DNA of 63,471 nt, filler included, from Licmophora abbreviata (taxonomy: Eukaryota), in the NCBI GenBank assembly GCA_900291995.1. It is 16 parts of 16 records of this genome, joined end to end, with 100 filler letters (N's around TTAATTAATTAA, not from the genome) between each part and the next. Parts side by side here need not be neighbours in the genome. Positions count along the whole stretch, not along the records: positions 44,154 to 48,576 come from OLMU01003529.1; 15 more parts are not named here. One strand, written 5' to 3'. This document shows positions 26,443-55,785 of this stretch, one piece after another. Position numbers and translations under genes: made by a program. The notes beneath the pieces are model-generated. The model was given only the letters and a program-made list of their open reading frames with translations. It was not told where the DNA came from and ran no database searches. Each line of letters starts with the position of its first letter. Position 1 is the first letter of the stretch.

Positions 26443-28283
26443 GATATGCTATCAGCAAGGATGGCGAAGGACACAGGCGTAGTAAATATTGCCGCGATCA
26501 CGACAGGTGTAGCGAGTGGCAGGTCGCTGCAGCTGGGAAGACTTTCTCAAAAGTACAGTGAATACTTGTGGCTGATGCTTTCAAGTTTCAACAGTTCGTG
26601 ATCATCATTGATCACGTGATCGCAATTTGAGTCTCGGCCATCGCAACACCGAATGGAATTGTATCTTAACACTATTCGCGTCTGAATATATCTAACAATA
26701 TACTTCTGTAACCTATATGGGACGGAGTCCGAACGCTTCGTTATGTGTATTCTAAATAATGGGTCACGAGTCCACACGTGCTTTGGAGCACGCCGCGCGC
26801 GGCGGCCGCCGCGTCATCGCAGAAACATACGAACTATTGCAACCATGATGAGCTATCGTATGCATATCGACTGTTAAAGTGACTATCATCAGGTGAACGT
26901 ACACATAAGTTCCAATGAAACAATACCCTATCGTCGTGACCTGGTTCATCTCCAACAGAGCTGCCTTCTTGAGAGAGTCCGGAAAAGGGAGCAGTTCTGA
27001 CACAACGCCACGAAAGAAGCAAACAACATCCTACCACGCAGAGGAGTATGCTACGTCAACGTAAGCACTCTGCCGTTCACTAGAAGCGTACTCGAGTACC
27101 CGGTCAAGGCAGACAAAAAGGACGAGTCAATTGCTCGAGTGTTACGGAAATTGATGGCAATCACTACTGTTGTGTTCAAAGAAGTCGTCCGTCTGGGAAC
27201 ACTCGAAGGACAATTAGTCTTACGAGATAGATGCTAGATTCCTGGTACTGGTAGTGTGGCAACAATAAAGCAGCCGCGGTAAGCTCTGTACCTACTAAGA
27301 CATGCATCGCGGAATGTCCTGGACTCAAACGTAAAACGACGCAACAATTGTGAGTATATGTAGACAGGAGATATGGCTGTCGCTCCTTGCCATCCTGGAA
27401 TAACAGTACAAATCGAATCGGAAAAGATGTAGATCGGGAATATCAACAAGGAATTCAGATGCCAGTAGTCATAAATAAGCTTCGATCGGGAATCGTCATG
27501 TTCGAGTGATGTGCTATATTTCTGAGAGTACATCCTAGCGTAGTGCAACATACCTATTGGAGCAGGATCGATCGATCAAATACCGTACGAATGCAGCCTG
27601 TTGAAAAGGATGCTGTTTAGCATCACCAACGCTACTCATGCCCCTGTCGCCGGTAGAAATTAGCATCACTCAAGCGATTCCGCGTCTGCGTGTGCGTCTT
27701 CGCACTGCTTCCATCGGTATTTGAGTCACACCAGAGCCTTCACCGGGGTAGTCAGAAAATGTATCCGGAAGGACAAGCCACAGCGGCAGCGTAGAGATTT
27801 AGAAGTCAAAGGACCAGCAGGATAAAAAGCGCTCGAGGCAGTAAGCATCCTGCTCCACGCGGACACAACACGTTCCGGCAAACTCGATGAACAGAAGTTT
27901 GACACAGCCACGGCAGTGTGTTATTTCCTATTGACTTCCAGCTCGTCGCAGAGGTATAGTGCTCCTCGCGAATCCATTCTGTCGTCCCGAAAGCGCTGCA
28001 TCAATGCACTCCGTCAGTTTTGGGAGCATCGCGTTCTTCTTTTTGTGGCTGTGAGAGCGCCATCATCACACTCTCAGACGTCTGGCGACCCATGCGAGTG
28101 ATATTTAATATACGCGCCGCGCGACATCATCGCGCACCTCGACACAAACACCATGACTTGAAACACACACACTTCGTTGAGGTCAACTTGGGGCGAGTGT
28201 CGAAGAGCCGTAGTCCGCTCATCACCCTTGCCTTCTCACTCATTTCCCATGGCTCAGACGGGACACTCGAGCGTACAAGAATC

Positions 28284-29302
28284 ATGGTTCGACGTACGCC
28301 CCTGAACGTGATAATCTTGGCGCTCTTGGTCGCCATGGCAGCCGTCACCACGCTCTGCTATCCGTCTCTGATTTCTGGAGGCATACAAATTGGTGGTCGG
28401 ACAGGTCTGATGACCGCTACATGGACCATGTCAAGCCACGACGAGAACAGAATCCCGAATCTTCTCTTAGCAGGAGCGCAAAAGGCGGGTACCACGTTTG
28501 TATCGTCCTGGCTAGATTCGAGCGAGGACGTCTGTGTCCACCGACCCATCCCAGGAGCCACGGACCCTGTAGATCGGTTGGTCTACGAAATGCATTTCTT
28601 CAACAAGCCCGATCGGTTGGAACAGGGAATTGACTTTTATCGCAGCGGCTTTGTACACTGCGGAAATAGCTCCTATATACTGGACGGCACACCAAACTAT
28701 CTGCAGCAGGCAGACACAATTTGGCAGTTTTACGACGAACAGGGCACGGCGGATGAGCTCAAAATAATTTTCATCTTGAGAGAACCAGTATCGAGGGAAG
28801 TATCATTTTACAACATGATGCTAAGGGACAAAGCGTCGACTCCGTGGGTGTTGGACTACCTGCAGAAGCCTGACGGGACGACTCGGACGTTTCAAGAATA
28901 CGTCGCTCACTGGTTCCCGCCAGCGTACGGTCAGAAACGACGCCCAGACTTTTATCGTCGCAAGGGTGTGTATGCGGTGAATCTCCGACCGTGGTTTGAA
29001 GCGTTTGATCGAAAAGAGCAGATACTTGTTTTATCCTTTGACGAACTCAAGTCGGACCCCGAAGCGTTCTTTGACCGCATCCACCGGTTTCTTGGACTGC
29101 GCGGCAATGTCACAGTCTTTGGAGATGAAGACGGAGATCGCAATTCGGGTCAAAAAACAGCTGAAACCCCAAAATGCTCCGCACAGAAGCGATTAGGTGA
29201 AATGTTTGAACCATTCAATGAAGAGCTGTACGCATTGCTGGACGAGAATCCAGGACCAGAGATGGAGCAGCGCCCTTTTCCGAGGTTCACCAAGCTTCGT
29301 TG
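28284..29302 (+). CDS. Golgi-type carbohydrate sulfotransferase (heparan-sulfate sulfotransferase-like); 3' end at the gap
   Basis: TM VIILALLVAMAAVTTLC; PNLLLAGAQKAGTT (5'PSB), EMHFFN, DGTPNYL, KIIFILREPVSREVSFY (3'PB), QILVLSFDEL, FLGL, FEPFNEELYALL. Confidence 0.9.
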
Positions 29303-29493
29303 NNNNNNNNNNNNNNNNNNNNNNNNNNNNNNNNNNNNNNNNNNNNTTAATTAATTAANNNNNNNNNNNNNNNNNNNNNNNNNNNNNNNNNNNNNNNNNN
29401 NNCGGAAAATTTACGAAAATTACAAAATTACGAATCTCATTGAGAAGGAAAGAGGCACACCCACAGTACAGGCAAAGAGGCAAATAAAGGCAC

Positions 29494-31418: not shown

Positions 31419-32493
31419 TATAGTGGACCACTGTGGTGTTGCGCCTAAAAAGAAATGAGATAGAGAACAGCAAGACGGGTGTGGAAGTGTTAGTTACAAG
31501 TACGTCTCATACGACCAAACAGGTTTCGTCGCCCATTTTCAGAGTTCTTCTTCATCTTCTAGAGAGCACGCAAGAATCAGTAGTAGTTGTATATTTGTGT
31601 AATTCGGTGTGTCGACAAGAGTTATAGAATAACTTCATTCCGACAGCTCCAATAAAGTTTGTCATCTTGTTCGTTGCGAGCACCGTGAAGAGCGAGAGAG
31701 AAGACAGCATCCGTACCATCGGCCTCAGAGAGCACGTACCAGTTTATGCGCAGCGTATCGATACTGTGTGCCATCAGTGTGCCATAATTCAGACACATAA
31801 ATCTCGAGGGGAATTCCTGAACGAGACACAACAATGCAAACAAGGAGTCAATCGGCGCCAATGAGTGATTCGACCACGACGAGATCGTTGCCCGACACCA
31901 AAACAAAACCAGGAGGCGATACCATCATTGCGCACATGGAAACGATCGTCACGATGTAAATAAATCAGAAACCGTAGTAATAAGAGCTTCCGTTGTTTGA
32001 ATCATGTGGCACCTCTCTCTCGCGTGTTGCGTCGTCCCATGGTGTAAGATTTTGTCTTACCTATTGTCTTCTGCACATTTTCGTACTCTCTACTGATTGT
32101 CTAGGTATGAAGCTGTAATCTTTTAACAATACTTAGGCATCCCGACATTCGTGCAGAGGAAAACCAGCATACGAACGGCGCCCTCAGTTCGTCATGGTCG
32201 TTCTGTGATGTTGTTGGTGTGATTTTGTGGTATGCAACGCATGACACACCAATGTGCGCGCAAAGACACGCGCGAAATGCAACGAGCTCCGAGCTCGCAT
32301 AACGTTGTAGTATGTCATACGATACCGCGCGCGCGCGGTATGAATGTCGTCGACATTCCCAAATTCTCGTTCGAAACAAAATTCAAGAGAAAAGTGTGTG
32401 GCTGCACCATGACAATGTCTATATGCGGCGGTATTTTAGGTGAAATTACGACACGCGGACGACGCTGACACGCATCTTACTGTCAAATTAAGA

Positions 32494-34980
32494 ATGACGA
32501 TGCATTCTAGCAACGAACGAACATTACGACGACGAGGATCCACCATAAGAAGAAGATGTACTACTACGCTCGTGTTTTTTCTTCTAGCAGTAACATCATT
32601 ATTGGTACTTTCGAATGCATCAGCACCCAAGACTGCCAGTGCATTTCTCATCCAGCGCAGTAGCAGGACACGACTGCCACTGTCATCTTTGCCCAATTCG
32701 CGTTCCACCAATAGCAGAGCTTCAACGACAGACCAGCCAAGTAAAACTGCGAGCCCGCTTGCAAGTCAGAAGCAACACGACGACGACAGCAAGAAGTCGA
32801 TACGTGACCGCCGTTCTCCTGATTTTTCATTACGACGAAAATTTCTTTCATCCGTATCCCATACGACAGCACTGCTTCCTATAATAATGATGATGGTGAT
32901 CCTAGTGATACTTCCATTTCAGGCTACTGCTGCTCCAAGTTTGGAAGACGACGACACCCCAGAATGGTCTCGTCGCTATTGGAATGTAATGACTACTTCT
33001 TCTACAGCGAACAAGCAGCAACAACGCGAACAGCGTATCGCGACCAATGAAGCCTTGTTGGATCATGCCGTGGGGACGATAACTACCATGTACTATGATA
33101 ATTCGGGCGGTGCGTTCTTCAACTCCAAGGACTTTTACTCTCAATGGAGGCAATTGCGACAAGAAAGCAGGCGGAACAGCAGTGCTGGAACGACGACGAA
33201 AAGAACGACACCATCACGTCTCATGAATCGACTTGGCGGAGGCGACGACGGCGAGAAGCAAAATTCCATCCCCAAGAATATAAGACTGGACGAACGAGAG
33301 GGTGCTGTAGAGGGCCTAAAGTGGCTAGTGGGGAGTTTGCATGATCCCTTTTCTAAGTATCTTACTCGAGAAGAACTACGGCAAGAACTCAAAGGTGGTG
33401 GAAACAACAACGATGGTTTCATTGGAACCGGGGCCATGGTGGAACCGCCCAATGAACTTCCATGGAAGCAGACTACAAGTATGATGAGAATGCGCAACAG
33501 TCGTTTGTTGCCGTCGTCGAGAAGGCAGACCAACTTGATTAGCAACAGCAGGGCTGCCAAACTACCAGTCGTGACGGCAATCGCACCGAACTCTCCGGCG
33601 GAGCGTGTGGGCTTGATTGTAGGAGATCGTGTCGTGGCAGTGGGCAAGGACAAGTTTGTTGGTTTGACGCCGTCTGAAGTCAGTCGAGTGTTGAGAACGA
33701 GGTACTCGGCAGAAAACTATGGCGGGCATGTCGAATTGACCATTGCGAAACCTGTCGTTGTGGTGCCCATGGCGTCGTTGCCACTACAAACAGCAACAAC
33801 GATGGAAGGAAGTACTTCTATGACTGGTGACAGACGGCAACAGCCCGTCGCCAATACGAACAGTCCCTCATTTTCTACACGAGAGGCTGTCGCCGGGTAT
33901 CGTCTATCAAAATTGGTGTTGCCTACAATATCGATTGACCCCTATCGGGAGCAACCGCAACATCGAAATACCGAAACGGGAGCGCTATCGGGTGGTGACA
34001 CCTTTGTCCAGTTCAAGCTGCTGACCTCTTCCGATACGATGCNNNNNNNNNNNNNNNNNNNNNNNNNNNNNNNNNNNNNNNNNNNNTTAATTAATTAANN
34101 NNNNNNNNNNNNNNNNNNNNNNNNNNNNNNNNNNNNNNNNNNAGTACATTGTGGACACGCGTTACCCTGGCTACTTGTTGTCGAGCGAATCCAAGTCAGT
34201 TGCCTTGGACCAAGTGAAACGTGAGACACCGGCATTGTTTTCACAGAACGGCGATGGCTGGATGCCACCGAGTTCCTTTGCGAGTCTTCATGAGCAAGGA
34301 GTGAAACGGGGCATTCGTCGAGCGGGCGACAGTTCGGTCAACCAATGGAACGCCGGTCTTACTGCGGCGACTGGAAACTTCGCGGTTCACTCCACGGACC
34401 CACTGCGTTTACAAAAGAAGCTAGTTATACTCATCAACGAAGGAACAGCCTCTTCGGCTGAAGTCTTTGCGTCTTCCTTGCATGACAACGGTCGTACCGT
34501 GGCCCTGGTAGGCACCAAGACGTTCGGCAAGGGTCTCATTCAACACACGTTCCCCATGCCCGACGGCGGTGGTCTCCGATTGACAGTGGCCGAGTACCTC
34601 ACTCCAGCTCTTCGACATGTGACGAATGTGGGCAGTGCACGATATGATCGCGACACTGGAGAGTGGGTTGGAGGAGGTATTCGCCCTGATGTTTTATGTG
34701 AAAGTAAACAAGGCATTCCAAGCAATGTCGGCGCCGATTTGTGTGTAGGTATGGCACTGGATGCGCTTGAGGATGCCGAAGTACAAGAGGCTGAAGCCGA
34801 AGCTCTTGGCACGTCATTGTTGAAACGCGTTGGCGGAAGTGCCGATGGCACAGGAGTGCGAAGGCGTGTCTCAGCAGGCATCGCCAAGGTAAGTTAGCAT
34901 CACTCTGAACGTGTATCTGTGCGATGAACACTCTTCTTATGGTTTCGTGTCGCTTGCCTTGTTTGTAGGATGACTTTTGA
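32494..34980 (+). CDS. ctpA: Carboxyl-terminal processing protease (CtpA, peptidase S41A with PDZ domain), plastid-targeted; spans the 34043-34142 gap
   Basis: Signal peptide + TASAF; second hydrophobic lumen signal ending ATA; SLHDPFSKYL; PDZ VTAIAPNSPAERVGLIVGD; LINEGTASSAEVFA; GTKTFGKGLIQ; LTVAEYLTP. Terminal intron 34889-34968. Confidence 0.9.
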
Positions 34981-38218: not shown

Positions 38219-38648
38219 CTGTCACTCGCAGCCCGGATCCATGTGTTTTATTCGCAAGGTGATGGTGTATCGTGTGGAGGAAGAACGAACGGGGCGTCCA
38301 TCCAGCATCGTTTCAACTGCATTGAGGCAGTCGAGTTCAGAGTTCAACGTATTCAGAGCCTTCTTGTACCGCGGTACCCCGTGGGACCAATCTTCTTGAA
38401 GAACGACATGAATATCCCGAGCTGCGACATTTTGTACTTATCATGACGAGAAACTTCCGACTGAAAAAAGGCACTTTCGACAAAGATGAAAACACTGCCC
38501 TTCAGAAAGAATGAATCGGTTTGTACGTCTGTCAAAACTTTTCAGGCTCCCCTAATCGCGAGCAGCCATTCAATTTCGAATTTCAATAGGATCTGTAATG
38601 ATGTTGATGTGATATCGCTATGCACACATCATTGATGACCATCACAGC

Positions 38649-40499
38649 ATGATGGCGACCCCCCAACGGCTCTTTTGGCTCGCCCTCGTGACTACCACCG
38701 CTTCTTCATTCTTTCTCCCGCCCCCAGGCAAACAGAATCGAATACCGGATCTTCGTGCGAGCAACGATGGAGCACCCGAGGCACTGCAGCGCACAGCAGC
38801 GCACTTGGAGAAATTGAAGCGATCGGCAGAAAGAAGACCCGACACCGTCCAGGATGATGATCCGTTTGCGGAAGAACGAGAAACTCTGTATCGAGCATAC
38901 CTTCAAAGATCGGCGAATTCCCTCAAGGATGAGCTCAAATCTCGCGGTCTACGAAGGACGGGAAGAAAGCCAGATTTGGCAAGTCGACTGGCAGAATACG
39001 ACTTGCAGTCACGACATGGGGTTGCCACAGCTCAAAAAGGCCATCAAGACACAGCAACTGAATCACCATGGACAGGCAGTTTTGCCAAGGCTACAGTTGT
39101 GCAGGATTTTGCTGGAATTGTCCTGTCGGAGGCTGCAGGCCAGGCGCTCGGATCTGCTGGCTTTGAAGCTCCGTCGCCGATCCAGGCTGCTGCTATTCCG
39201 TCGCTTACTCAGGGGGAATCTGTGATTTTGCATGCAGAGACTGGTTCAGGAAAGACGCTTGCCTACTTGCTTCCCTTTACTGAAACGCTATGGCTAAACC
39301 AGGATGAAGAGCACCTAGGGTATACGATCATTATGACGCCTACTCGAGAACTAGCAGCTCAGGTTGCTGGGGTTGCCACTGTATTGTCGCCTCCGGGAAG
39401 TGTGCGTTTCGTTTCTCGGGCGACCAATTTGATGTCAGATGGCCTCAAAGAACGAGGTGAGCTCGAATATGGAGGTCGACTGGATGACGCGCCAGCAGGC
39501 GTGACACCACGTTTGTTTGTCGGTAGCGCCAAGGCCATTATGCACAGTTTGTATGGCGACGGTGTCATGCCAGCTTCCCCGACCACCAAACCAGAGGCCA
39601 TGTTCCTCTTGCGAAATGTCAAGTCTCTCGTTTTGGACGAGGTTGATCGACTGCTCCATGTTCAAAAGTCGCGCAGCGACAATTCTAAGCGTCGACACGA
39701 AAAGCCTGCTGCAGTCGTCGCTTCTGCCGTGGCGCGTCTCACGTTGGGACGAGCCCAAATCGTTGCTGCGAGTGCAACCGTCGGACGTCCATTGAAACGC
39801 GAAATGACACGAGTATTGGGACTCGCACCACAAGACTGTCCGCGCGTCATTCGAGCGGACGACGGGAACAAGAGGACGGAGCATGAGCAAAAGCACATGG
39901 GTCGCGCCGTGACTATCCCATCGACCGTGCGAAACTATGTCCTGCCCGTGGATGGCTCATCGGTTGGAAATCTTTTAACTTCTGCGTTCCGAACTATCCA
40001 ACGCCTGTCGTCAGGTCGTCAGCGACGCATTCTTCTCGTGCTGACTCGAGGCTGCGGTATAAACACCCAGAATGCGATTGGCGCACTAAAACACTTTCGA
40101 TGTCAACCGGAACCACAGTCATTGCTTGATGCTTTGGAGGCAAGTGGCACTGATCGATTGATCCAGGTACATCGAGAAGTATCGGGCGCCACTGGTCTCG
40201 GTGAATCGTCTGAGCTGGCAGGTGCGGGGGGCCAGCAAGAGGGGTATCTGCTAGTGACCGGGGAAGACTCTGTTCGAGGCTTGCACCTGGATGGGCTGGA
40301 CACTGTTATTCTTGTGGGTCGACCACATGGGCCCGACGAGTACACGCATATTGCAGGACGAACAGGACGAGCTGGCCAGACTGGAAGTGTCATCAGTGTC
40401 GTAAGCGATGCAAATGCTGCAGCATTGAGATCTTGGGAGCGAATGCTAGAGATCGACTTCGAGCGGTTGCAATTGAATGATTTAGAGAATTTGGAATGA
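38649..40499 (+). CDS. DEAD-box RNA helicase (DEVD) with N-terminal SAP domain; plastid-targeted; intronless
   Basis: Signal + TASSF; SAP SANSLKDELKSRGLRRTGRKPDLASRL; PSPIQ, AETGSGKT, PTRELA, DEVD, SAT, VRGLH, HIAGRTGRAG. Confidence 0.9.
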   Translation: MMATPQRLFWLALVTTTASSFFLPPPGKQNRIPDLRASNDGAPEALQRTAAHLEKLKRSAERRPDTVQDDDPFAEERETLYRAYLQRSANSLKDELKSRGLRRTGRKPDLASRLAEYDLQSRHGVATAQKGHQDTATESPWTGSFAKATVVQDFAGIVLSEAAGQALGSAGFEAPSPIQAAAIPSLTQGESVILHAETGSGKTLAYLLPFTETLWLNQDEEHLGYTIIMTPTRELAAQVAGVATVLSPPGSVRFVSRATNLMSDGLKERGELEYGGRLDDAPAGVTPRLFVGSAKAIMHSLYGDGVMPASPTTKPEAMFLLRNVKSLVLDEVDRLLHVQKSRSDNSKRRHEKPAAVVASAVARLTLGRAQIVAASATVGRPLKREMTRVLGLAPQDCPRVIRADDGNKRTEHEQKHMGRAVTIPSTVRNYVLPVDGSSVGNLLTSAFRTIQRLSSGRQRRILLVLTRGCGINTQNAIGALKHFRCQPEPQSLLDALEASGTDRLIQVHREVSGATGLGESSELAGAGGQQEGYLLVTGEDSVRGLHLDGLDTVILVGRPHGPDEYTHIAGRTGRAGQTGSVISVVSDANAAALRSWERMLEIDFERLQLNDLENLE

Positions 40500-43993: not shown

Positions 43994-44250
43994 AGACAGT
44001 TGCCGCCACGGTTCAAACACATAGATGCATTTATAAATTCAGTTTATTCTAACNNNNNNNNNNNNNNNNNNNNNNNNNNNNNNNNNNNNNNNNNNNNTTA
44101 ATTAATTAANNNNNNNNNNNNNNNNNNNNNNNNNNNNNNNNNNNNNNNNNNNNCATAGATGCATTTATAAATTCAGTTTATTCTAACACAAAGTAAAACC
44201 TCCCCCCGACGGAACTTTGATCTGGACATGTCTCCCACACTGTACGTTCA

Positions 44251-45714
44251 TCACAGACGGACACTTTCGAGATCACTGTCGTCTTGTAGCTCCTGCTGCA
44301 ATTGGCGATAATCTGATCTTGCCCGACGCGAATGTGAACCCGCAGAGTCTTCCATAGATGCATTGTCCTCCTCGCTTATGGGCGACAGATATGCAAACTG
44401 TGGCGGGTCCGTCGATCCTTGTGATGACACCTCAAGGGTTGTGCCCCCGGAGATACTAGTACTCTCTTGAGACGGAGGGGCCTTTTCGTAAGCAGAGTCA
44501 CTTTGATCTCGACGCCTTTTGTACAAGTACAAAATAGCCCCTCCCGACACTAGCACCCCTGCTGCCACAATCAACGCTACGGCAGAGGCACTCAAGCTTG
44601 ATGTTTTCTTCCCGGTGGCCTGTTCGAGGGATGAAGTGGAGGAGAATACATTGTCGTCTGGAAGCTTTTCATTCATTGAAAGCACAAGAACCTCCATGAG
44701 CTCTCCTTGGAACGCCGTGACCAAGAGACCGTCCAACTCACGCTTTCGGGGAGTTCGCGGTGATTCAGGATCGAACTTTGCCTCGGCGATGTAATCAATA
44801 CGAATGGGCTCTCCAGGGAGGTAGGTGCCTCCGTTATAAAAGAGATTGAGATGTTCGAACTCGATTCTGTTGGTCTCAGAGAAGAGCTCAGAATAGTACC
44901 GTTGAAGAAACTCTTCGGTCACACTCATGGTAGCAAGGTAATCTTGCTTGGATGGAACTGTATCATCTTTCACCGTGTGAAGCACGGCGAAGTTTGACAT
45001 TTCTACCTTACCATCTTCTTCGGGCGTAACCGGTTGAGCTGTAACAGGAGACGGTCTCCTCGTAGCGGTCGGTCGCCGAGTTCCTCTCGTAGGTGTGGGT
45101 TCCAATGTAGAAACTGGCCGTCGTGAGTTGTCACCGCTGGGACCAGTAAAGCCGGAGATACTTGGTTGACTGGTCGGGGCAAGATCGATTGGGATCGGTT
45201 GTACCGAAGGCATTGGCGACATTGAAGGCCCTGGACGAGGAGTCGGCTTGGGCGTTGGCTTAGGCGTTGGCTTGGGCGTTGGCTTAGTCGGCATCGGTTT
45301 CGGAGTAGGCTTATCACATGACGTCCCTCCTTTTCCCTTTTTCCCCTTTGATGAACACCCGCCCTTCTTGCCTGAGCTGCTCTTGCTGCTCTTGCTACTT
45401 TTGCTACCCTTTCTGCTGGGTTCCGGCTTCGTTGGCTTTGACACCGGTTTCCTCGTAGGTTTTGAGACTGGTTTCTTCGTGGGCTTTGGAGATGGCTTTC
45501 CATCATAAATATTCGTACGATCAAAGTCTTGACCAGGAAGAGCCCCTTCCCTTCCGTTTAGAAGATGCGGGTGCTCATTGTGATACCATCGGCTCCTCTC
45601 AATCATTGTGTCGCCGCGGAACGGATCCTCAAAGGTCTCCTCGAAGGCATCAATCTTTGGGACCAGGCCCATCAGAAGTGGTGCGATACAAAGCAGAAGG
45701 GATAGCCACATCAT
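44251..45714 (-). CDS. Type I membrane protein with signal peptide, Lys/Ser/Gly cluster, KPTP repeats and an uncharacterised luminal domain (paralog A)
   Basis: Signal MMWLSLLLCIAPLLMGLV; KGSKSSKSSKSSSGKKGGCSSKGKKGKGG; (KPTP)n; globular domain ending NVFSSTSSLE; TM AVALIVAAGVLVSGGAILYLY followed by KRRR. Confidence 0.85.
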   Translation of the reverse strand: MMWLSLLLCIAPLLMGLVPKIDAFEETFEDPFRGDTMIERSRWYHNEHPHLLNGREGALPGQDFDRTNIYDGKPSPKPTKKPVSKPTRKPVSKPTKPEPSRKGSKSSKSSKSSSGKKGGCSSKGKKGKGGTSCDKPTPKPMPTKPTPKPTPKPTPKPTPRPGPSMSPMPSVQPIPIDLAPTSQPSISGFTGPSGDNSRRPVSTLEPTPTRGTRRPTATRRPSPVTAQPVTPEEDGKVEMSNFAVLHTVKDDTVPSKQDYLATMSVTEEFLQRYYSELFSETNRIEFEHLNLFYNGGTYLPGEPIRIDYIAEAKFDPESPRTPRKRELDGLLVTAFQGELMEVLVLSMNEKLPDDNVFSSTSSLEQATGKKTSSLSASAVALIVAAGVLVSGGAILYLYKRRRDQSDSAYEKAPPSQESTSISGGTTLEVSSQGSTDPPQFAYLSPISEEDNASMEDSAGSHSRRARSDYRQLQQELQDDSDLESVRL

Positions 45715-45789
45715 TACAAACGTTGGCTTCGAATGATCATGGATTGCTTACGTGACAGTTGTGGTTGCCCTGGGAGATTGGGGTGGATG

Positions 45790-45836
45790 CCAAAAACGTG
45801 AGTTCTCGCGCCAAAATTTTGATCTGCATGCGTTGG
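45790..45836. promoter_or_regulatory. Putative cis-regulatory module upstream of paralog A
   Basis: CCAAAAACGTGAG (45790-45802), GCCAAAATTTTGA (45810-45822), GCATGCGTTGG (45826-45836); all three recur upstream of paralog B. Confidence 0.6.
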
Positions 45837-46065
45837 GTCTTGATGTGTGATTGAAAAATATCATGACAGACAGTTTGAGAGAATGGGTTCTTACATTATG
45901 AAGTAGTGTAATCAATCAAATGTTTATACAAACTTCAAACATATATACTATGATATTCCCCTTCTGCTCTTCCCTTGCTCATCAGTTACACGAATCGCCG
46001 CTAGTAGGCACGCAAACATTGACTGTACCGGTATCACCACCACGGTGCTGGATGTACCTGGCACC

Positions 46066-47916
46066 TCATGAGTCGCTACCGGTAGTGTTATCTTCGACAT
46101 CTCCCTCCGAGCTACCGGTATCCGTCGCCTCTACCTCCTCTTCGCTCTCGCTGCTCCCCTCTGATTGGGCTGTCTCTGATTCTTCATCTTGACTTTCCCT
46201 TCCTTCATCGATATCTTCGCTATCATCCATGGACAACATATCCATATCGCGGAGCACTCTCATTTCGTTCACATTCGTGTCCCCTTTATTTCCAATTTGT
46301 TCGTCTGGTAGCTCCACATTGTCTTCTTCGTCACCAGGACAAGCTTGGTATGTCGTCATTAGCATCACAGGAGGAGGAGGTGGATTCGAGGTCATGGATG
46401 CAGTGTCTCCAGCGTTCGAAAATTCAACCGTACCGGCGTCTTCAGGCGCAATGTCATCTTCCTTCGTCGGTACCCGTTCCCCCCGATTGCGTCGTCGCTT
46501 GACGAAGAAAAAGAGGAAAATGCAAATAACAGTAGCTGCGCCAGCTACAGCGCCAATAATTGGACCCAGATTTTGGTTCTTGCTCTTGGAGTTCACCGAG
46601 GGGTCGCCATTGACTTGTCCGCCGGCGCCAATGTCAGCGACGCACTCTACTCCCGTCGTACTTGAGAATGGGTTGCTCGAATCAAATTCTTGTAGAAGGT
46701 CAACATAGAGCTGAAGTTGATCGCCACCAGAACACAGGAGCCGACCAAAGATGTCATCCAATTCGCCCTTTGTAGGAATGGTCCCATCGAACCCGAACGC
46801 TGTTCCGCTTTTATAGCGGACGACGAAGGTAGACATTGTTGACAACTCATTCACATTCGAACCTATAAACACGACGTTGGTCGCACTAAGGAAATGTGCG
46901 TACAGAAAGTCATCAAGGAACCACCCAGTGAGGTGGGCTAGATCCTCGTAATGCTTTCGTTCCGGAGCCTTTGACCCTGTAGAGACCAGATATTGAAGTG
47001 AAATCTCGTTGGTAATTTCAGCTAGATCTCCGGATCCGTACGCTGAACAAAACGACGAAAGGCGTGATGAGTTTCAGCAATTTTTATGATGGCATCAGCT
47101 CAAACATAGACCCATTGACTTACGATCACCTGAATCTCCCTCTCCAGTCGGCTTTGATGGTCCCTTGGTGGGCGATGTTCCTGTCCCCCCATTGTCGGAA
47201 GTGTCGACGCTATTTCCTGTTTTCCGGCTGCTGTCTGTTCCGTCGGAGTCACTGCCAGATGAATCATCGGTACCAGACATATCAGAGGTACCAGATGAAT
47301 CATCGGTGCCAGACATATCGGTGGTACCAGACGAATCATCGGTGCCAGCTGAATCGGTGGGACCGGAGGAGTCGCTACCGGCGCCGCCATTCCCTTTGCC
47401 CGGATTGTCGTATGAGGAGCTGTCATCACTTGACGCGTCATCAAACGACGATTTATTTCTTGGAATTTTGGAGTGACCTAACTTGTCTTTCTTCTGGCGT
47501 TTACGCTTCTTGCCTTTGCTGCTCCCTTTGCCGCTTCTTTTGCTACTTCCTTTGCCTCCCTTTCCCTCCCCCTTGCCACTTTCGTCAATGCTGCCTGAGT
47601 TCACGTCCAGTCCACCTGCGTTCGCGGTGACTGTTATTGGTTCGAGTTGTACATCCTTTGTTGTATACTCATACGAAATCAAGTCGTTTATATCACCGTC
47701 CACCTCCCCTAAGGTAAAGTCTCCGTTCGCGTTTCCGACCGGTACATCACCATGCCAATCACCAAAAACCCGTCGACTGCCCTTCGGTTGAGAAAGCGAT
47801 CTCCGGCTACGGATGCTGCCTCGGTTCCGCTTGCTTTCAATGCCGAGCGTGAAGCTACTGGCGCTTAGCAAGATCAAGGATAATATCCACCGATTGCAGA
47901 AGCGGTCGTTCTTCAT
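46066..47916 (-). CDS. Type I membrane protein with signal peptide, RxL motif, Lys/Ser/Gly cluster, acidic repeats and the same luminal domain (paralog B)
   Basis: Intron 47043-47123 joins ORFs 47095-47916 and 46066-46872 in frame; RRSL; GKGEGKGGKGSSKRSGKGSSKGKKRKR; domain ending NPFSSTTGVE; TM IIGAVAGAATVICIFLFFFV followed by KRRR; acidic cytosolic tail. Confidence 0.85.
47254..47350 (-). repeat. 36-nt coding tandem repeat (GTDDSSGT(T/S)DMS), about 2.5 copies
   Basis: Repeated ccagatgaatcatcggt(a/g)ccagacatatc units on the + strand. Confidence 0.85.
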
Positions 47917-48321: not shown

Positions 48322-48676
48322 TCGGGTTAGTGTACAGTGAGAAGTGAGGGCGGTCGCATCCTGCGTTGTCCAGTTCCACCTGTGAATTGGCACCAGAATC
48401 AGTTTGAGCACTTGCCGATCCATCTCTCTAGTAAAGCAGAATTGACGCTCGTAGACCATGGTGATGGCGCAGCGCCGCTGGCCAATTAGATGCACGTACG
48501 TTCTAAACAAGCTTCACTTCGACGACTTAGTGAAAAACAAGTACGAGTAACTAAATGCCTTACTGCTACTAACTGGNNNNNNNNNNNNNNNNNNNNNNNN
48601 NNNNNNNNNNNNNNNNNNNNTTAATTAATTAANNNNNNNNNNNNNNNNNNNNNNNNNNNNNNNNNNNNNNNNNNNN

Positions 48677-50013: not shown

Positions 50014-50391
50014 GTTGAATCTTTGCAGCAACCAAATCTTTGTGATGACAGCAAAGAACACAAAGCGTCGCACAAAAGCAAACACCAAACTCCGGTACCA
50101 TGTAGTACGTGGTCCACGCACGACCCACAACCATTCCAAATGCCGGCATTCGAAATTCCAAATTCCGGAGGTGGTGCGAGCTATTCCGAGCAGACGTTGG
50201 AAGGAGTTCGTGGAACCACGAAACAAATTCAAAATGAATCATTCGATTCACGAATTGACTGTGTCTGGACTGGCTGCGCCTGAGTGAGTCANNNNNNNNN
50301 NNNNNNNNNNNNNNNNNNNNNNNNNNNNNNNNNNNTTAATTAATTAANNNNNNNNNNNNNNNNNNNNNNNNNNNNNNNNNNNNNNNNNNNN

Positions 50392-51817
50392 TGTTGCTGC
50401 ACCACTACCATCATCATCGACTCTGCGAACGTCATCCTCGCTGACTGCTGCTGCCGACACTGCATACGTGACGGTGCAAAACAATGAGGATGACTCTCCT
50501 GATGGGCTCTTCCTTTGGTCTCCTACCACCTCTTCTTCACGGTCCGCATGGAACTGTCGTGCCCTGGGCATCACTCTTGTGGTACTCATTGTCGCCTTGC
50601 TTGCCAACGTGATAGTTTTACTAGTAGTACCACCATCAAGTTCGTCGCCACAGCTCGACCCCCACGCAGAAACCTGCACTGAAACTACTACAGCCGCATC
50701 AACAACGATTCCCTGGAAACCTCTTCCACCGCCCGATTCAGTCATTACTCGCATTGCCTTTGGCAGTTGCGCTCGCGCCGAAATGCCTCAGCCCTACTGG
50801 GATACGCTCCAGCACTACTACCAACCCGACCTGACGTTGCTCTTGGGAGACAATGTCTACGGGGATTGTACTACGGATCAGTGCACGAAACTGCTACGTG
50901 CCTATCAATACTTTTCGGAATTGCCCTCCTTTCAGGGTGCCAAACGGTCCCTGTCCATGTTGGCGGTTCTGGACGATCATGACTATGGCATGGACGATTG
51001 CGACGGAGAAAACAATCCTTACAAAGACATAGCACTGGCCAAGTATTTGGACTTCTTCAATATAACGGACGATCGTAGACAGCGATTGGACGGTGTCTAT
51101 CAATCCTATCTCTTCGGACAAGACAACCAACAGAACCCCAACAATAGTACCACATTGCAAGTTATCTTGTTGGATACACGATTTCATCGATCGCCATTTT
51201 TGCCTTCGGACGAACCCAACACGCCTCGGAAGGAGCGGTACATGGAAGATACCGTGAACACAAGCAAACGCATGTTGAGTGATACTCAGTGGACATGGCT
51301 ACAAGATCAGTTGAAGGTCCCCGCCAAAGTACGACTCATTGTCAGTTCCATCCAAGTCTTGGCCGATGGTACGGGATTCGAATGTTGGCGCATGCTACCC
51401 CACGAACGAACCAGATTGATGCGTTTGCTGGAAAGTACCCTCGATGAGTCGGCAACATTCTTGCTGAGCGGGGATCGCCATGTCGGGGGAATCTACTTGT
51501 ATCCATCCAGCGAGGAAAAGAATCGAACATTGCTCGCAGAAGTGACGGCTTCGTCGTGGACGCATACCGCACCACTCGGTGCCTTTGATGATTGTTCGAC
51601 GGCAGCGGAATGTGATGAGGTAGACGACCGACGAGTGTCGGAATTTGTTCGTGTCAATAATTTTGGATCCGTTGATATTGACTGGGAGGCGCGTCGAGTG
51701 CATTTGGGAATACGAAGGGCGGAATCATCTCCATACAGCGCTTACAGCCACCATCACCGCAAGGGACCGACGGATGCGGGGGAGTTGTTGCAACAACAGA
51801 CATTCGAGATTCCGTGA
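50392..51817 (+). CDS. phoD: PhoD-family alkaline phosphatase/phosphodiesterase with N-terminal membrane anchor; 5' end in the gap
   Basis: TM LGITLVVLIVALLANVIVLLVV; RIAFGSC, LGDNVYGD, DDHDYG, LLDTRFHR, QWTWL, LLSGDRHVG, EVTASS, NFG. Confidence 0.92.
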
Positions 51818-51974: not shown

Positions 51975-52693
51975 CTACGCGCACTCAAACGCACTCCGCG
52001 GCACAGCCGCTGAGCCACCGACAATGGTCGACAATTCACTCTTGTTTACGTGCTGTCTTAGCTCAGTAGCACGGCTCACCACAATGACCTTTGATCGAGT
52101 CCTTCGGGATGAGATGTAGGACCGTATGGTTAGACTCCCACCCATACCCGTGAACATGTCGCCGGGAAGAATGAGGGCCTTGTGCAGACGTTCTGGGTAG
52201 TGGTCTTGTAGGGTCTCCACCAGGCGTCTAATAGCTTCGCTGTTGGTGTGAACGCTGTACGTTTCTGTAGGGTTGAGTCGAGGATTAGCGCCTTTGCGCA
52301 GAGGATTCCACGTCGAGGCGGTTGTCGTCTCGGTTGTGACAGATCGTGATGTGTCGCCCTCGTCGGCTGCCACGGTGGTGGTCGCTCGGGTGTCGTCTGC
52401 ATTAGTTGCCGTGTCTTCGTCGCCGTCCTTTTTCTTCTTGGGCTTTCTGTTCCTCTTTAATGGTTTACCCATGTTAATGATGACTGTGCACTTGACCGTT
52501 GGTTTCTCCCGACGAATGCATTTTTCCAGTCGATAGAGGAGAGCCGATATTAGTGCGTCCTCATCCTTCCGCCAAGGCCCGAGACACATGTTTTGAAAGT
52601 AAAAGACGGGACGGCCCATCACATCACAGCCTTGCTGGAAGAACTGACCGGACTGTAGCTCAACGCGGCATTCGTCTACGTGGATCGGAAACG
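51975..52693 (-). CDS. CRAL-TRIO (Sec14-like) lipid-binding domain; probably the 3' part of the gene upstream of the gap
   Basis: Frame is open from the gap: FPIHVDECRVELQSGQFFQQGCDVMGRPVFYF...LQDHYPERLHKALI...TRSKV...ELSTIVGGS. Confidence 0.8.
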
Positions 52694-52793
52694 NNNNNNN
52701 NNNNNNNNNNNNNNNNNNNNNNNNNNNNNNNNNNNNNTTAATTAATTAANNNNNNNNNNNNNNNNNNNNNNNNNNNNNNNNNNNNNNNNNNNN

Positions 52794-55448
52794 CTGATTG
52801 GAAGCCTCGATACGAGTGACTGCACTGTAATATGTCGGCAACGCGACCTCGACTGGATCCACATGCACAAGCCGTACCGACGCCAAGGCGCGCTCTGGAA
52901 GTTCGTCTAGCTTTTCGCCCTCCAGGACGAATGTGAAATCTACAATGCACGCAGGGAGCGCCCCTTCTTCCAAGCGTTCGTACAGAGCGCGTACTGCCAC
53001 GTTGCTCATTTGATTCACATCAATATGTGATGTGACGGAAACGTAGTTGCTTGGGAGAGACGGATCCGTCCGAAGGGAGCCACCAAAGTGTCGACTTTCA
53101 GTGTAGTTGCCCAGAGTCATGCCGGGAAAGGGAGTTCGATCTGCGCCACTTTCCGGTGGAATCTGTGTTTCGCCTCTGCGAGTCCAGCGAAACAGCATCG
53201 TCACCGCCTTGAGTGCTGCCCACGTGAGAGGAGATAGTTTTGATCCCGGCCCCAACTGCATGAATACTTCGAACTTTCTCTTGCGATCTTCGGCAGTGCC
53301 GCTGACGAACATGTCAATCTGAGGACAGCGGAAAGACACGAGAATGAAAGTGAGACCAGGGCTTATTCTATGCTCGATCGTACGCCCACAGCCGCAATTA
53401 CGTACAATCCTGTCGAAGCTGAGGTCGACGCCCCTTGGCAGTGAACGAACAAAGACGTGCACAAAACCGACTCGAATACCCTCCGGAAAGAAAGCACACA
53501 CAAAGAAATCTAAGTCGGGGTGTGCTTCGATCATTCTGCGTAGCGATGGAAGTGCCTCCACTGGGTCTTCCGAAGGCTTCAAGGGATGCGCCTCCCCCTT
53601 CGGCGGAAGCTTGAAGACGTGCGACCCCACCAGCGAGTACGCTTGATACGCACTAGCACCACTCGCACCGTGTGACTTTAAATGGCGTCGAGAGTGTACT
53701 GTACACTTCACATCGCGGGAAACAGTAGCTTCATAATACTCATTCGAGGCCTCTTTATCGCGGTCGACATTGTCCAAGTTCGCATCATAGGCAAGTCGTC
53801 TCGTCAAGTAGCCACTAGAAGATTCTTCCACCGGCAAATTCCAACCACGGTTCACGACGATTCGCGCCGCCACGAAGCTCTGTACCAAAACCGCGGCCTC
53901 CGCGACTAGCTTCCGTGCACGCAGCAGCTGTTCCATGCGCTGGGGATTCGACTCTTCGTAGGGGAAGGAGGTCGTGGGAATGAGCGGCACAAATAGACGG
54001 AAAAAATCCACGGGTCCAAGCAATTGTCTCTTGTCAGCGTATTCTGCCGTAATGTCGCTTACGTCTCCGCCGTTACTTGCGTCTTCGTCCTGATTGGACA
54101 TCATCAACAACAGCCGACCGGCCAACTGCTTTTCGAGAGCAGACCGAACACTTGCGAGACCTGAAAAGCATCGCATGGCGTCATCCCAAGCAACACTCCC
54201 TTTCTTGATCTGCTCGTCACTCTCAGAGTCATGCAACAAACACTCCTTGCCATCATGCGCCAGACTTCCCTTGTGCACAACCTCCAACGCATCGTACATA
54301 TGCCGAATCGCCGCTCCAAGAACTTGACACCCCAACAAGTCATACTGGAACTGCGCAGCATCCAAGGCTGTCGGAAATGTATGTTCCATCCACTCCTGTT
54401 TTTGATTCTTCACCCTACTATTGTACAACTCCAAGACCGCTCCCTCGACGGGTGTTTTGACATGCACCGACACATCATCCGTCAAGGTCGTTTGGACATG
54501 ACGATCATTTGTGTTGACCCCCTGCGTCGTGATTGTTCTCATTCGAACGTCCAGCACGACCTTTTTCTGCGATCGAGTTTTCGTATCCTTGGGCAACAGC
54601 TTCTTGGACGCTTCAGACCATGCGAGAGGCGGTGTGTGAGTCGAGTACACCAGTGTCGCGACCGATGGACCCATAACGACGGGAAAGAGGTCCTTCTTAG
54701 TGTTGCTGTTGTTGGCAGCAGATGATGACGATGAAACTAACAGACCATCGTCCGCCCGTGGAAACAACCCCGTTGTTGTATCCGAACTGATAGCTCGAGG
54801 TCGATTCATCATCATGATGCCGGATGTTGGTGAGATCATCAAGTTACCAGTAGAACTATTCGCACGCCGACGATTCCCCCCTGCGGATGGTAGTACTACC
54901 ATTCGTTTTCGTCGTCGTCTCCACAAGAGAAGAATCATCAAACACAAGAGAACTGACAAGAACACGATCCACAAGAAAATGTGTTCTTCTTGGCTTGTCG
55001 ATGCTGTCTCGTTCCATGATGATGATGATGAGATCCACGCAAAGCCTGTAGGAAACGCAATGATGCGGTCCACCAGAACAGTCCAGGCTCCCGCTGCAGT
55101 AGTATTACCAGATTCATCAGCATCGGCCTGTAGTACTACTCCTTCCTCGCCGCTCTGTTGAAAGTCATTTGGAAAGTCCGTAACTTCCTTTGCCTCACGG
55201 TTCGAAGTGTGATGGTCGCCATCGTCGTCGCTGCGGAACCATGATGTCGTGAAACCGGAAAGGAAATCAGGATATGAAAGAGACTTCCAAGACTCTGCTA
55301 CTGGACGATCAAAGAGTCCGTCATTTCTACTGCTACTACTAGGAGTACTCGATATTGTACTACCAGCAGTATCATATGTTTCTGTTGTTGTTCTTTCGGA
55401 GGAGCTGCCAATTGTCGTATCCTCCTGTTGCTGTTGAGGAGACATCAT
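52794..55448 (-). CDS. Large membrane-anchored protein with EDR2 C-terminal (DUF1336)-like domain; runs into the gap
   Basis: TM IFLWIVFLSVLLCLMILLLW followed by RRRRKR; C-terminal CIVDFTFVLEGEKLDELPERALASVRLVHVD; probable stop-free 87-nt intron 53319-53405. Confidence 0.7.
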
Positions 55449-55785
55449 GGTTTTTGAATCGTTCAAGAGTAAAAGACAATGTCGTTCGTACAGTGTGCAT
55501 GCCCCGGGGCGTGATGTGATATTATACCGTAGCGTCAAGAGAAGATGACAGTCTCCTTGGATCTTCCTTGTTGCGTTTTGGTGTTTGTCTCCATTTTGAA
55601 CCAGAATTCAAGAAATTCAATTCACCTCGATCGCGCGGATCGCGCACATCGCATTATCGGCAACGACCAAACTTCATCATAACTTCCATTATCTTCATCA
55701 TCTTCTACAATATCTATCTCTGGCGACATTCAACCGCGCAACAAGGGGCACGCTAAATTAAGAGAGCAACACGCTATGATACACG

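Follow-up and report, generated by a model that had tools for sequence, protein, structure and literature searches.

The window analysed here is a stretch of 63,471 nucleotides from Licmophora abbreviata (assembly GCA_900291995.1), composed of 16 parts from 16 records with filler between them, and the part that comes from record OLMU01003529.1 (44154..48576) carries two genes, referred to here as A and B, that encode membrane proteins with a shared domain just outside the membrane. That proteins A and B belong, as divergent members, to one large family of type I membrane glycoproteins is well supported. The two genes and all of their features given below are on the minus strand. Gene A (44251..45714) is a single exon with an uninterrupted open reading frame (ORF) of 487 aa plus a stop codon, and gene B (46066..47916) has two exons that encode a stop-free protein of 589 aa once spliced. 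The first exon of gene B (47124..47916) comprises residues 1-264 and the first base of codon 265. It is followed by an 81-nt intron (47043..47123) of the form GTAAGT...TTGTTCAG (GT..AG) with two in-frame stops inside it, after which the second exon (46066..47042) continues in frame and supplies the end of the stalk, the domain, the transmembrane (TM) helix, the tail, and the stop codon. The spliced version is the only model of gene B that reproduces the family layout, because exon 2 alone starts within the domain and has no signal peptide; profile searching and hhalign both place the start of the family domain just past the intron acceptor. Only 351 bp (45715..46065) separate the stop codon of gene B from the start codon of gene A, so the 3' end of gene B and the promoter of gene A must share this stretch, which is AT-richer. 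Overall, the genes are compact, the intron is short, the GC content is ~49%, and the opposite-strand ORFs that run across both genes are low-complexity mirror images.

A preliminary description of this locus had proposed a common layout for the two proteins, consisting of a signal-like segment, a Lys/Ser/Gly cluster, a repetitive stalk, a globular domain of ~130 aa, a single TM helix followed by KRRR, and an acidic tail, and every one of these elements is present. Protein A begins with a signal-peptide-like hydrophobic N-terminus (residues 1-23, 45646..45714; Kyte-Doolittle windows >1.6 at residues 1-3), which is directly followed by an acidic segment (residues 24-71) rather than a basic one. 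Residues 72-134 (45313..45501) form a basic Lys-Pro and Lys/Ser/Gly cluster, KGSKSSKSSK...KKGGCSSKGKKGKGG, with a net charge of ~+18 and a composition of 29% Lys, 24% Ser, and 14% Gly. The KKGGCSSKGKKGKGG portion sits between two cysteines, K[SG][SG]K motifs start at residues 102, 105, and 108, and the cluster contains 14-aa windows with at least five lysines. At the DNA level, Tandem Repeats Finder detects repeats within the cluster at 45376-45417 and 45429-45488. The stalk of A (residues 135-235, 45010..45312) is basic and Pro/Thr-rich (29% Pro, 16% Thr, isoelectric point [pI] 11.8) with KPTP repeats, which the same program sees as DNA repeats with a period of 12/24 nt at 45238-45287. Next is the folded juxtamembrane domain (residues 236-366, 44617..45009), identified from an AlphaFold2 model, its structural neighbours, and its homologues, and then a TM helix (residues 373-397, 44524..44598; hydropathy peak of 2.36 at residue 379) followed by KRRR. 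The protein closes with an acidic, Ser-rich cytosolic tail of 90 aa (residues 398-487, 44254..44523; pI 4.26) that ends in LESVRL, matching a C-terminal [VI]x[LIF] motif of the family. Cysteines occur only at residues 9, 120, and 133, two of which follow the signal peptide.

Protein B has the same order of parts. Its hydrophobic N-terminus (residues 1-26) precedes a strongly basic segment (residues 27-50, 47767..47838) containing the sequence RSL at residues 39-41 (47794..47802), which bears out the RxL site that had been noted after the signal peptide of B. An acidic segment (residues 51-111) leads into the Lys/Ser/Gly cluster GKGEGKGGKGSSKRSGKGSSKGKKRKRQKKDK (residues 112-147, 47476..47583), which is 33% Lys, 28% Gly, and 17% Ser, has a net charge of +12, and is underlain by a 12-nt DNA repeat at 47513-47563 (Tandem Repeats Finder). 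KxxK occurs seven times in A and five times in B. The stalk of B (residues 148-264, 47124..47475) is an acidic Ser/Asp/Gly/Thr sequence with GTDDSSGTxDMS repeats, a pI of 3.67, and a net charge of -17; it extends ~10 residues into exon 2 (to ~275) and contains a 36-nt DNA repeat of 2.6 copies with 93% matches at 47255-47348 (Tandem Repeats Finder). Thus, composition and DNA repeats both agree with the earlier portrayal of the stalk as basic, with KPTP, in A and as acidic in B. The juxtamembrane domain of B (residues 276-405, 46621..47010) was located by profile, hhalign, and AlphaFold2, and its TM helix (residues 423-445, 46501..46569; hydropathy windows at residues 422-430) is likewise followed by KRRR. 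Across A and B, the gap from the end of the domain to the TM helix is 7-23 residues. The cytosolic tail of B is 144 aa long (residues 446-589, 46069..46500) and very acidic (pI 3.2), with a net charge of ~-36 over residues 453-589. The C-terminal [VI]x[LIF] motif does not occur in this tail, and a search for an extra 3' exon that would provide it yielded no convincing splice site. The cysteines of B are at residues 7, 368, 398, 438, and 499, four of which follow the signal peptide, including one within the TM helix. As read from the sequences and the models, A and B both have a type I topology, with KRRR positioned according to the positive-inside rule, a luminal order of lysine cluster, stalk, and folded juxtamembrane domain, and short motifs on the cytosolic side. 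The stalks are long and repetitive, and they are probably heavily modified.

The shared domain and its family

The likeness between the two domains had originally been noticed by eye from three pairs of short motifs. BLASTP and Smith-Waterman both align these pairs, which fall on the most conserved columns of the family. A direct comparison of A and B is nevertheless marginal, as BLASTP gives an E-value of 4e-4 at 21% identity over 198 aa with the TM helix included, while a Smith-Waterman alignment of the domains alone scores 46, relative to 27.0 +/- 4.6 for shuffled sequences, 7 of 2000 of which reach 46 or more. The family tells a different story. Among all 948 six-frame ORFs in the window, a profile built from A and 51 homologues (profile A1) matched A and B only, with B scoring 86.7 bits (E 9.3e-26) and A, which is itself part of the profile, scoring 196.6 bits. 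Aligning the same profile with B by hhalign returned a probability of 98.2% and an E-value of 3.1e-14 over 166 columns, and the domain of B alone matches 83 of 151 homologues of A at E<1e-3. An exhaustive HMMER search with residues 230-397 of A retrieved 175 cluster representatives at E<=1e-3, 14 of them at E<=1e-10 and the best at 2e-13, and these matches span the domain rather than the TM helix alone. Thus, despite the weak pairwise likeness, the sequence evidence for a shared domain is decisive once it is drawn through the family. When 167 domain copies were placed in a tree, A and B fell into separate clades (supports of 0.70 and 0.84), and B ranked only 141st of 166 tips in nearness to A, from which it follows that they are not recent tandem duplicates.

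The domain had also been called uncharacterized, and this holds with respect to known sequence families. Neither A nor B has a Pfam match above cut-off, and a Pfam scan of 52 family sequences at E<=1 left the domain unmatched, including by SEA (PF01390), and produced TM-type matches only. No Pfam family occurs in 29 of 30 long homologues, the exception being P0011, in which an FG-GAP repeat was found outside the domain. A search of the profile against PDB sequences gave a best E-value of 0.075, and all of its matches fell on TM or tail positions of the profile. Word-indexed protein searching was of little use for judging the range of the family, since it returned 0 matches for residues 232-372 of A, 3 for profile A1, and 4 for profile A3 when run among longer proteins. 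Metagenome-contig scans with the domain of A and with the homologue P0154, both run as single-protein queries, confirmed no locus. In the ESM Atlas, the domain obtained scores of 0.77-0.82 with a SEA cluster at rank 6, which serves as a lead only. The only homologue with a named source is P0047, which has the same layout and comes from the diatom Thalassionema nitzschioides. Our literature searches turned up no account of a luminal domain family, SEA-like or comparable, among the silica proteins of diatoms. The domain family appears to be undescribed, and it is probably diatom-specific.

Fold, layout, and motifs across the family

In terms of fold, the domain is probably not an orphan. AlphaFold2, supplied with the family alignment, produced confident models of both domains, with a predicted local distance difference test score (pLDDT) of 94.3 and a predicted template modelling score (pTM) of 0.88 for A and corresponding values of 90.6 and 0.83 for B, and both models have the same β-α-β-β-α-β order. 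An exhaustive structural aligner was run on the two models separately. For model A, SEA domains, membrane-adjacent (MAD) domains, and other ectodomains close to the membrane make up 10 of the first 13 matches, led by MAD12 of PCDH15 at Z 8.4 (112 residues aligned, root-mean-square deviation [rmsd] of 3.6), with additional PCDH15 MAD12 matches at 8.1 and 7.9, followed by the SEA domains of Gpr126 (7.5), TMPRSS6 (7.2), and MUC16 type (6.8 and 6.6), SorCS2 (6.6), and, lower still, CDH23 MAD28 (6.4), a protease SEA domain (6.3), and IA-2 (5.9). For model B, the first 10 matches are all membrane-proximal ectodomains. A MUC16-like SEA domain is at the top (Z 7.7, 100 aligned, rmsd 2.6), and it is followed by PCDH15 MAD12 (7.5-7.0), the Gpr126 SEA domain (7.5), and TMPRSS6, SorCS2, and a protease SEA domain (7.0 each). 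The SEA and MAD values of 6.3-8.4 are middling and lie in a range that, according to the tool, models lacking a true relative commonly reach, and we therefore name the fold SEA/MAD-like rather than a SEA domain. The predicted fold is a SEA/MAD-like ferredoxin-type sandwich, and the domain sits directly on the membrane.

SEA domains self-cleave at a Gly-Ser bond in the turn between β2 and β3, within the motif G/SVVV. The corresponding turn of A is LPGEPI, and in the family consensus, G-x-P-I, the Gly is not followed by Ser, Thr, or Cys, so autoproteolysis of the SEA type is not expected. Compared with the metazoan SEA domains (MUC16, TMPRSS6, Gpr126) and MAD domains (PCDH15 MAD12, CDH23 MAD28), the domain of A and B is alike in its predicted fold and in its position outside the membrane below a stalk or repeats, and it differs in having no Pfam match, a G-x-P-I turn, and middling Z scores; common descent would be hypothetical. 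A comparable assignment appears in a bioRxiv preprint (10.64898/2026.03.25.714164), which calls the mating-type-related MRP1 of Pseudo-nitzschia multistriata SEA-like by structure.

Next, the layout of the family was considered across 151 homologues, many of which are N-terminally truncated predictions. The domain is present in all 151, with 2-4 copies in 18 of them; 139 have a TM helix after the last copy, and 97 have a basic cluster after that helix. When a Lys/Ser/Gly cluster is defined as at least five Lys and at least seven Ser plus Gly within 20 aa, it occurs upstream of the first domain in 26 of the 33 homologues having at least 100 aa in that region, vs. none of the 118 tails that are 100 aa or longer. 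RxL lies within 50 aa after the hydrophobic core in 12 of 18 homologues with a crude signal peptide, when shuffled sequences would lead one to expect 1.2. Silaffin-like character is thus conserved across the family rather than peculiar to A and B, and the original observation is more general than first noticed. None of the columns of the family alignment is a conserved Cys, and conservation on the cytosolic side is confined to short motifs. One of these, [TS][VIL]xG[ED]T, is found in 54 of 151 homologues; the C-terminal [VI]x[LIF] motif, typically L-x-[DE]-V-x-L, terminates 25 of 135 compared to an expected 1.3 (binomial p ~1e-24).

Several homologues have additional features. Tyr/Trp-rich patches flank the lysine clusters of P0014, P0024, and P0064 (e.g. 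SWSWGKGKGTYYKGSKK and KYYYPSKGSK), and these flanks recall the Y- and W-type cingulins. P0011 (1164 aa) has three domain copies after an N-terminal region with the FG-GAP repeat (E 4e-21); it also has an apparent internal hydrophobic segment and no TM helix after the last copy, which may reflect either a different topology or a truncated model. With regard to the C-terminus, both LESVRL of gene A and the [VI]x[LIF] motif of the family resemble a hydrophobic C-terminal ligand of the PDZ type. A separate ORF of the window (32440..34098, plus strand), ~10 kb from gene A along the joined window, encodes a PDZ domain (PDZ_6, E 9e-9).

Elsewhere in the window are ORFs at 27960..29354, 38613..40499, and 50348..51817 on the plus strand and at 51975..52745 and 52746..55607 on the minus strand, which between them encode sulfotransferase, DEAD-box helicase with SAP motif, PhoD-like phosphatase, CRAL/TRIO, and EDR2_C domains. 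These five are ordinary eukaryotic genes, and a functional link to A or B is not evident. Paired runs of 44 Ns set 12 bases apart occur at 15 places (5006-61524; 1320 Ns in total), such as 44054-44153 and 48577-48676, and represent the filler between parts. They mostly fall between ORFs or at ORF ends, where they give runs of X in translations, and one is located ~100 bp downstream of the stop codon of gene A.

Silaffin-like features and rival explanations

Published screens for biosilica proteins provide a yardstick for the clusters of A and B. According to PMC3478156, silaffin-like proteins were sought by a signal peptide together with a Ser content of at least 18% and a Lys content of at least 10% per 100 aa; 29 windows of 100 aa pass this composition rule in A and 53 in B. 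PMC5501833 sets out a pentalysine criterion of five non-consecutive lysines in 12-14 residues and a screen for repeated KxxK (x being Ser or Gly) spaced 1-6 residues apart, and it reports Lys/Ser/Gly clusters as a hallmark of biosilica-associated proteins. Seven 14-aa windows that start with Lys and contain at least five lysines are present in each of A and B, some of these lysines being adjacent, and in KGSKSSKSSK of A the KxxK motifs overlap by sharing lysines. An RxL site after the signal peptide is likewise presented as typical of diatom biosilica-associated proteins in PMC5647440 and PMC5525289.

Comparison with the known systems places A and B among them without equating them to any. Like the silaffins and the in silico silaffin-like proteins (SFLPs) of diatoms, they have a putative endoplasmic reticulum signal peptide, RxL (in B and most relatives), Lys/Ser/Gly clusters, KxxK motifs, and repetitive low-complexity sequence; however, silaffins are depicted as soluble, unstructured, and luminal in PMC5525289, whereas the cluster of A and B is anchored by way of a folded domain to a TM helix with a long cytosolic tail. 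Silicanin-1 and the SiMat7-like proteins have a type I topology, a signal peptide, an N-terminal RxL, conservation among diatoms, and a proposed site in the membrane of the silica deposition vesicle (SDV), according to PMC5525289 and PMC5501833, and A and B share, or would share, these features, RxL being confined to B of the two. As outlined in PMC5525289, silicanins have an NQ-rich luminal domain of 341 aa with 18 conserved cysteines, the heptapeptide GGQKFAL before the TM helix, and a cytosolic domain of 20 aa. The few cysteines of A and B, the absence of GGQKFAL, and tails of 90 and 144 aa rule out their being silicanins. The silicalemma-associated proteins SAP1-3 resemble A and B in having a signal peptide, RxL, a Ser-rich luminal region, a single TM helix, both acidic and basic members, and a cytoplasmic part thought to meet cytosolic factors (PMC5647440). 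The same paper gives SAPs a conserved domain on the cytoplasmic side next to the TM helix and no KxxK, unlike the luminal domain and KxxK motifs of A and B, and on these two points an identity with SAPs, which were compared by description only, was rejected.

Family membership, topology, and fold are all well supported. A role of A and B in silica formation is plausible from the motif hallmarks, and to the reading of A and B as membrane-tethered silaffins, taken as a whole, we assign even confidence. Several observations weigh against it. No RxL was found ahead of the domain in A, and a strict K[SG][SG]K motif occurs just once in B. The signal peptides were called by crude hydropathy rather than by a dedicated predictor, and the N-terminus of B falls below the 19-aa hydropathy threshold. 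Only 16 of 33 homologues pass the Ser/Lys composition rule. Foldseek searches against the PDB and against viral models gave no match at E<=1e-3, the structural neighbours score in the middling range described above, and among the nearest ESM Atlas clusters, which at scores of 0.80-0.82 are no more than leads, one bears a mostly Haptophyta label. Lastly, a mucin-like stalk above a SEA-like domain, a TM helix, and a tail is the classic layout of surface glycocalyx and adhesion proteins, which does not require silica at all.

This last point underlies the strongest rival explanation, namely that A and B are generic mucin-like surface glycoproteins of the glycocalyx, of adhesion, or of mucilage anchoring, in which the stalk would be an O-glycosylated spacer, the SEA-like domain would be the module that such proteins customarily have next to the membrane, and the cluster would bind anionic polysaccharides instead of silica. 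We regard this as unlikely, although it is a genuine contender. The RxL sites and Lys/Ser/Gly clusters that recur throughout the family are described as biosilica hallmarks in PMC5647440 and PMC5501833, even if those reports leave room for the same features in other secreted diatom proteins. The best structural neighbours, which are juxtamembrane domains of metazoan mucins, proteases, and cadherins, would also suit a surface glycoprotein, as would the pairing of the domains with an FG-GAP repeat in P0011.

A second alternative, argued by analogy, is a wall-integrity or mechanosensor tether, in which the cluster would be fixed in the finished silica, the stalk would act as a spring, the domain would respond to force, and the tail would signal. 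Counterparts for such a device are yeast Wsc1 and Mid2 and the MAD12 domain of protocadherin-15. The architecture that speaks for a tethered silaffin speaks equally for this tether, the top structural neighbour of A comes from a force-transmitting cadherin, where it is the domain adjacent to the membrane, and the cytosolic motifs are conserved. Nevertheless, likeness of fold shows no function, nothing points to persistence at the plasma membrane after exocytosis of the wall, and the autoproteolysis motif of SEA domains is missing, all of which make this analogy quite improbable. It is scarcely credible that the whole pattern is an artefact of low-complexity noise, or of a gene B made of two unrelated ORFs without a common domain, as the marginal BLASTP result and the shuffles that equal the domain score might suggest, because the canonical intron restores the family layout that exon 2 alone, having no signal peptide, does not provide, while the absence of a shared domain is refuted by the profile search, by hhalign, and by a model of B that, like that of A, exceeds a pLDDT of 90 and has the same topology.

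Proposed role at the silicalemma

If A and B are membrane-tethered silaffins, they would be routed through the secretory pathway to the SDV and/or the plasma membrane. The RxL propeptide site ahead of the cluster, as seen in B and most relatives, would allow processing in B, and the lysine cluster could then associate with, or become embedded in, the forming silica or the charged silaffin/polyamine matrix within the SDV. The stalk would serve as a modified spacer, basic in A and acidic in B, and the folded domain as a rigid, possibly force-bearing or protease-accessible module next to the membrane. On the other side, the TxAGET-like and C-terminal [VI]x[LIF] motifs of the tail may connect the complex with factors for sorting or patterning in the cytosol.

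A bolder extension, which we consider rather doubtful, is that the family represents the long-postulated adaptors that span the SDV membrane. In that case, the lysine clusters and the oppositely charged stalks would nucleate or organize the silaffin/polyamine matrix, while the conserved cytosolic motifs would be recognized by the cytoskeleton or by cytosolic patterning factors, for example the dAnk proteins. For these, according to PMC9894196, no transmembrane receptor has yet been identified. Once exocytosis is complete, the molecules might stay in place as a force-bearing SEA/MAD-type tether between the plasma membrane and the frustule, and the family would then be a protist counterpart of the transmembrane-mucin layout.

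The known membrane proteins of the SDV, the silicanins and SAPs, do not have lysine clusters of the silaffin type, and the known silaffins do not have a membrane anchor. This family joins a lysine cluster to a membrane anchor through a folded domain and adds cytosolic motifs, and its members are thus taggable candidates that bear upon two questions, how information is transferred across the silicalemma and how the wall is attached to the cell. The domain profile likewise offers a handle for screening biosilica and SDV proteomes as well as silicon-response transcriptomes.

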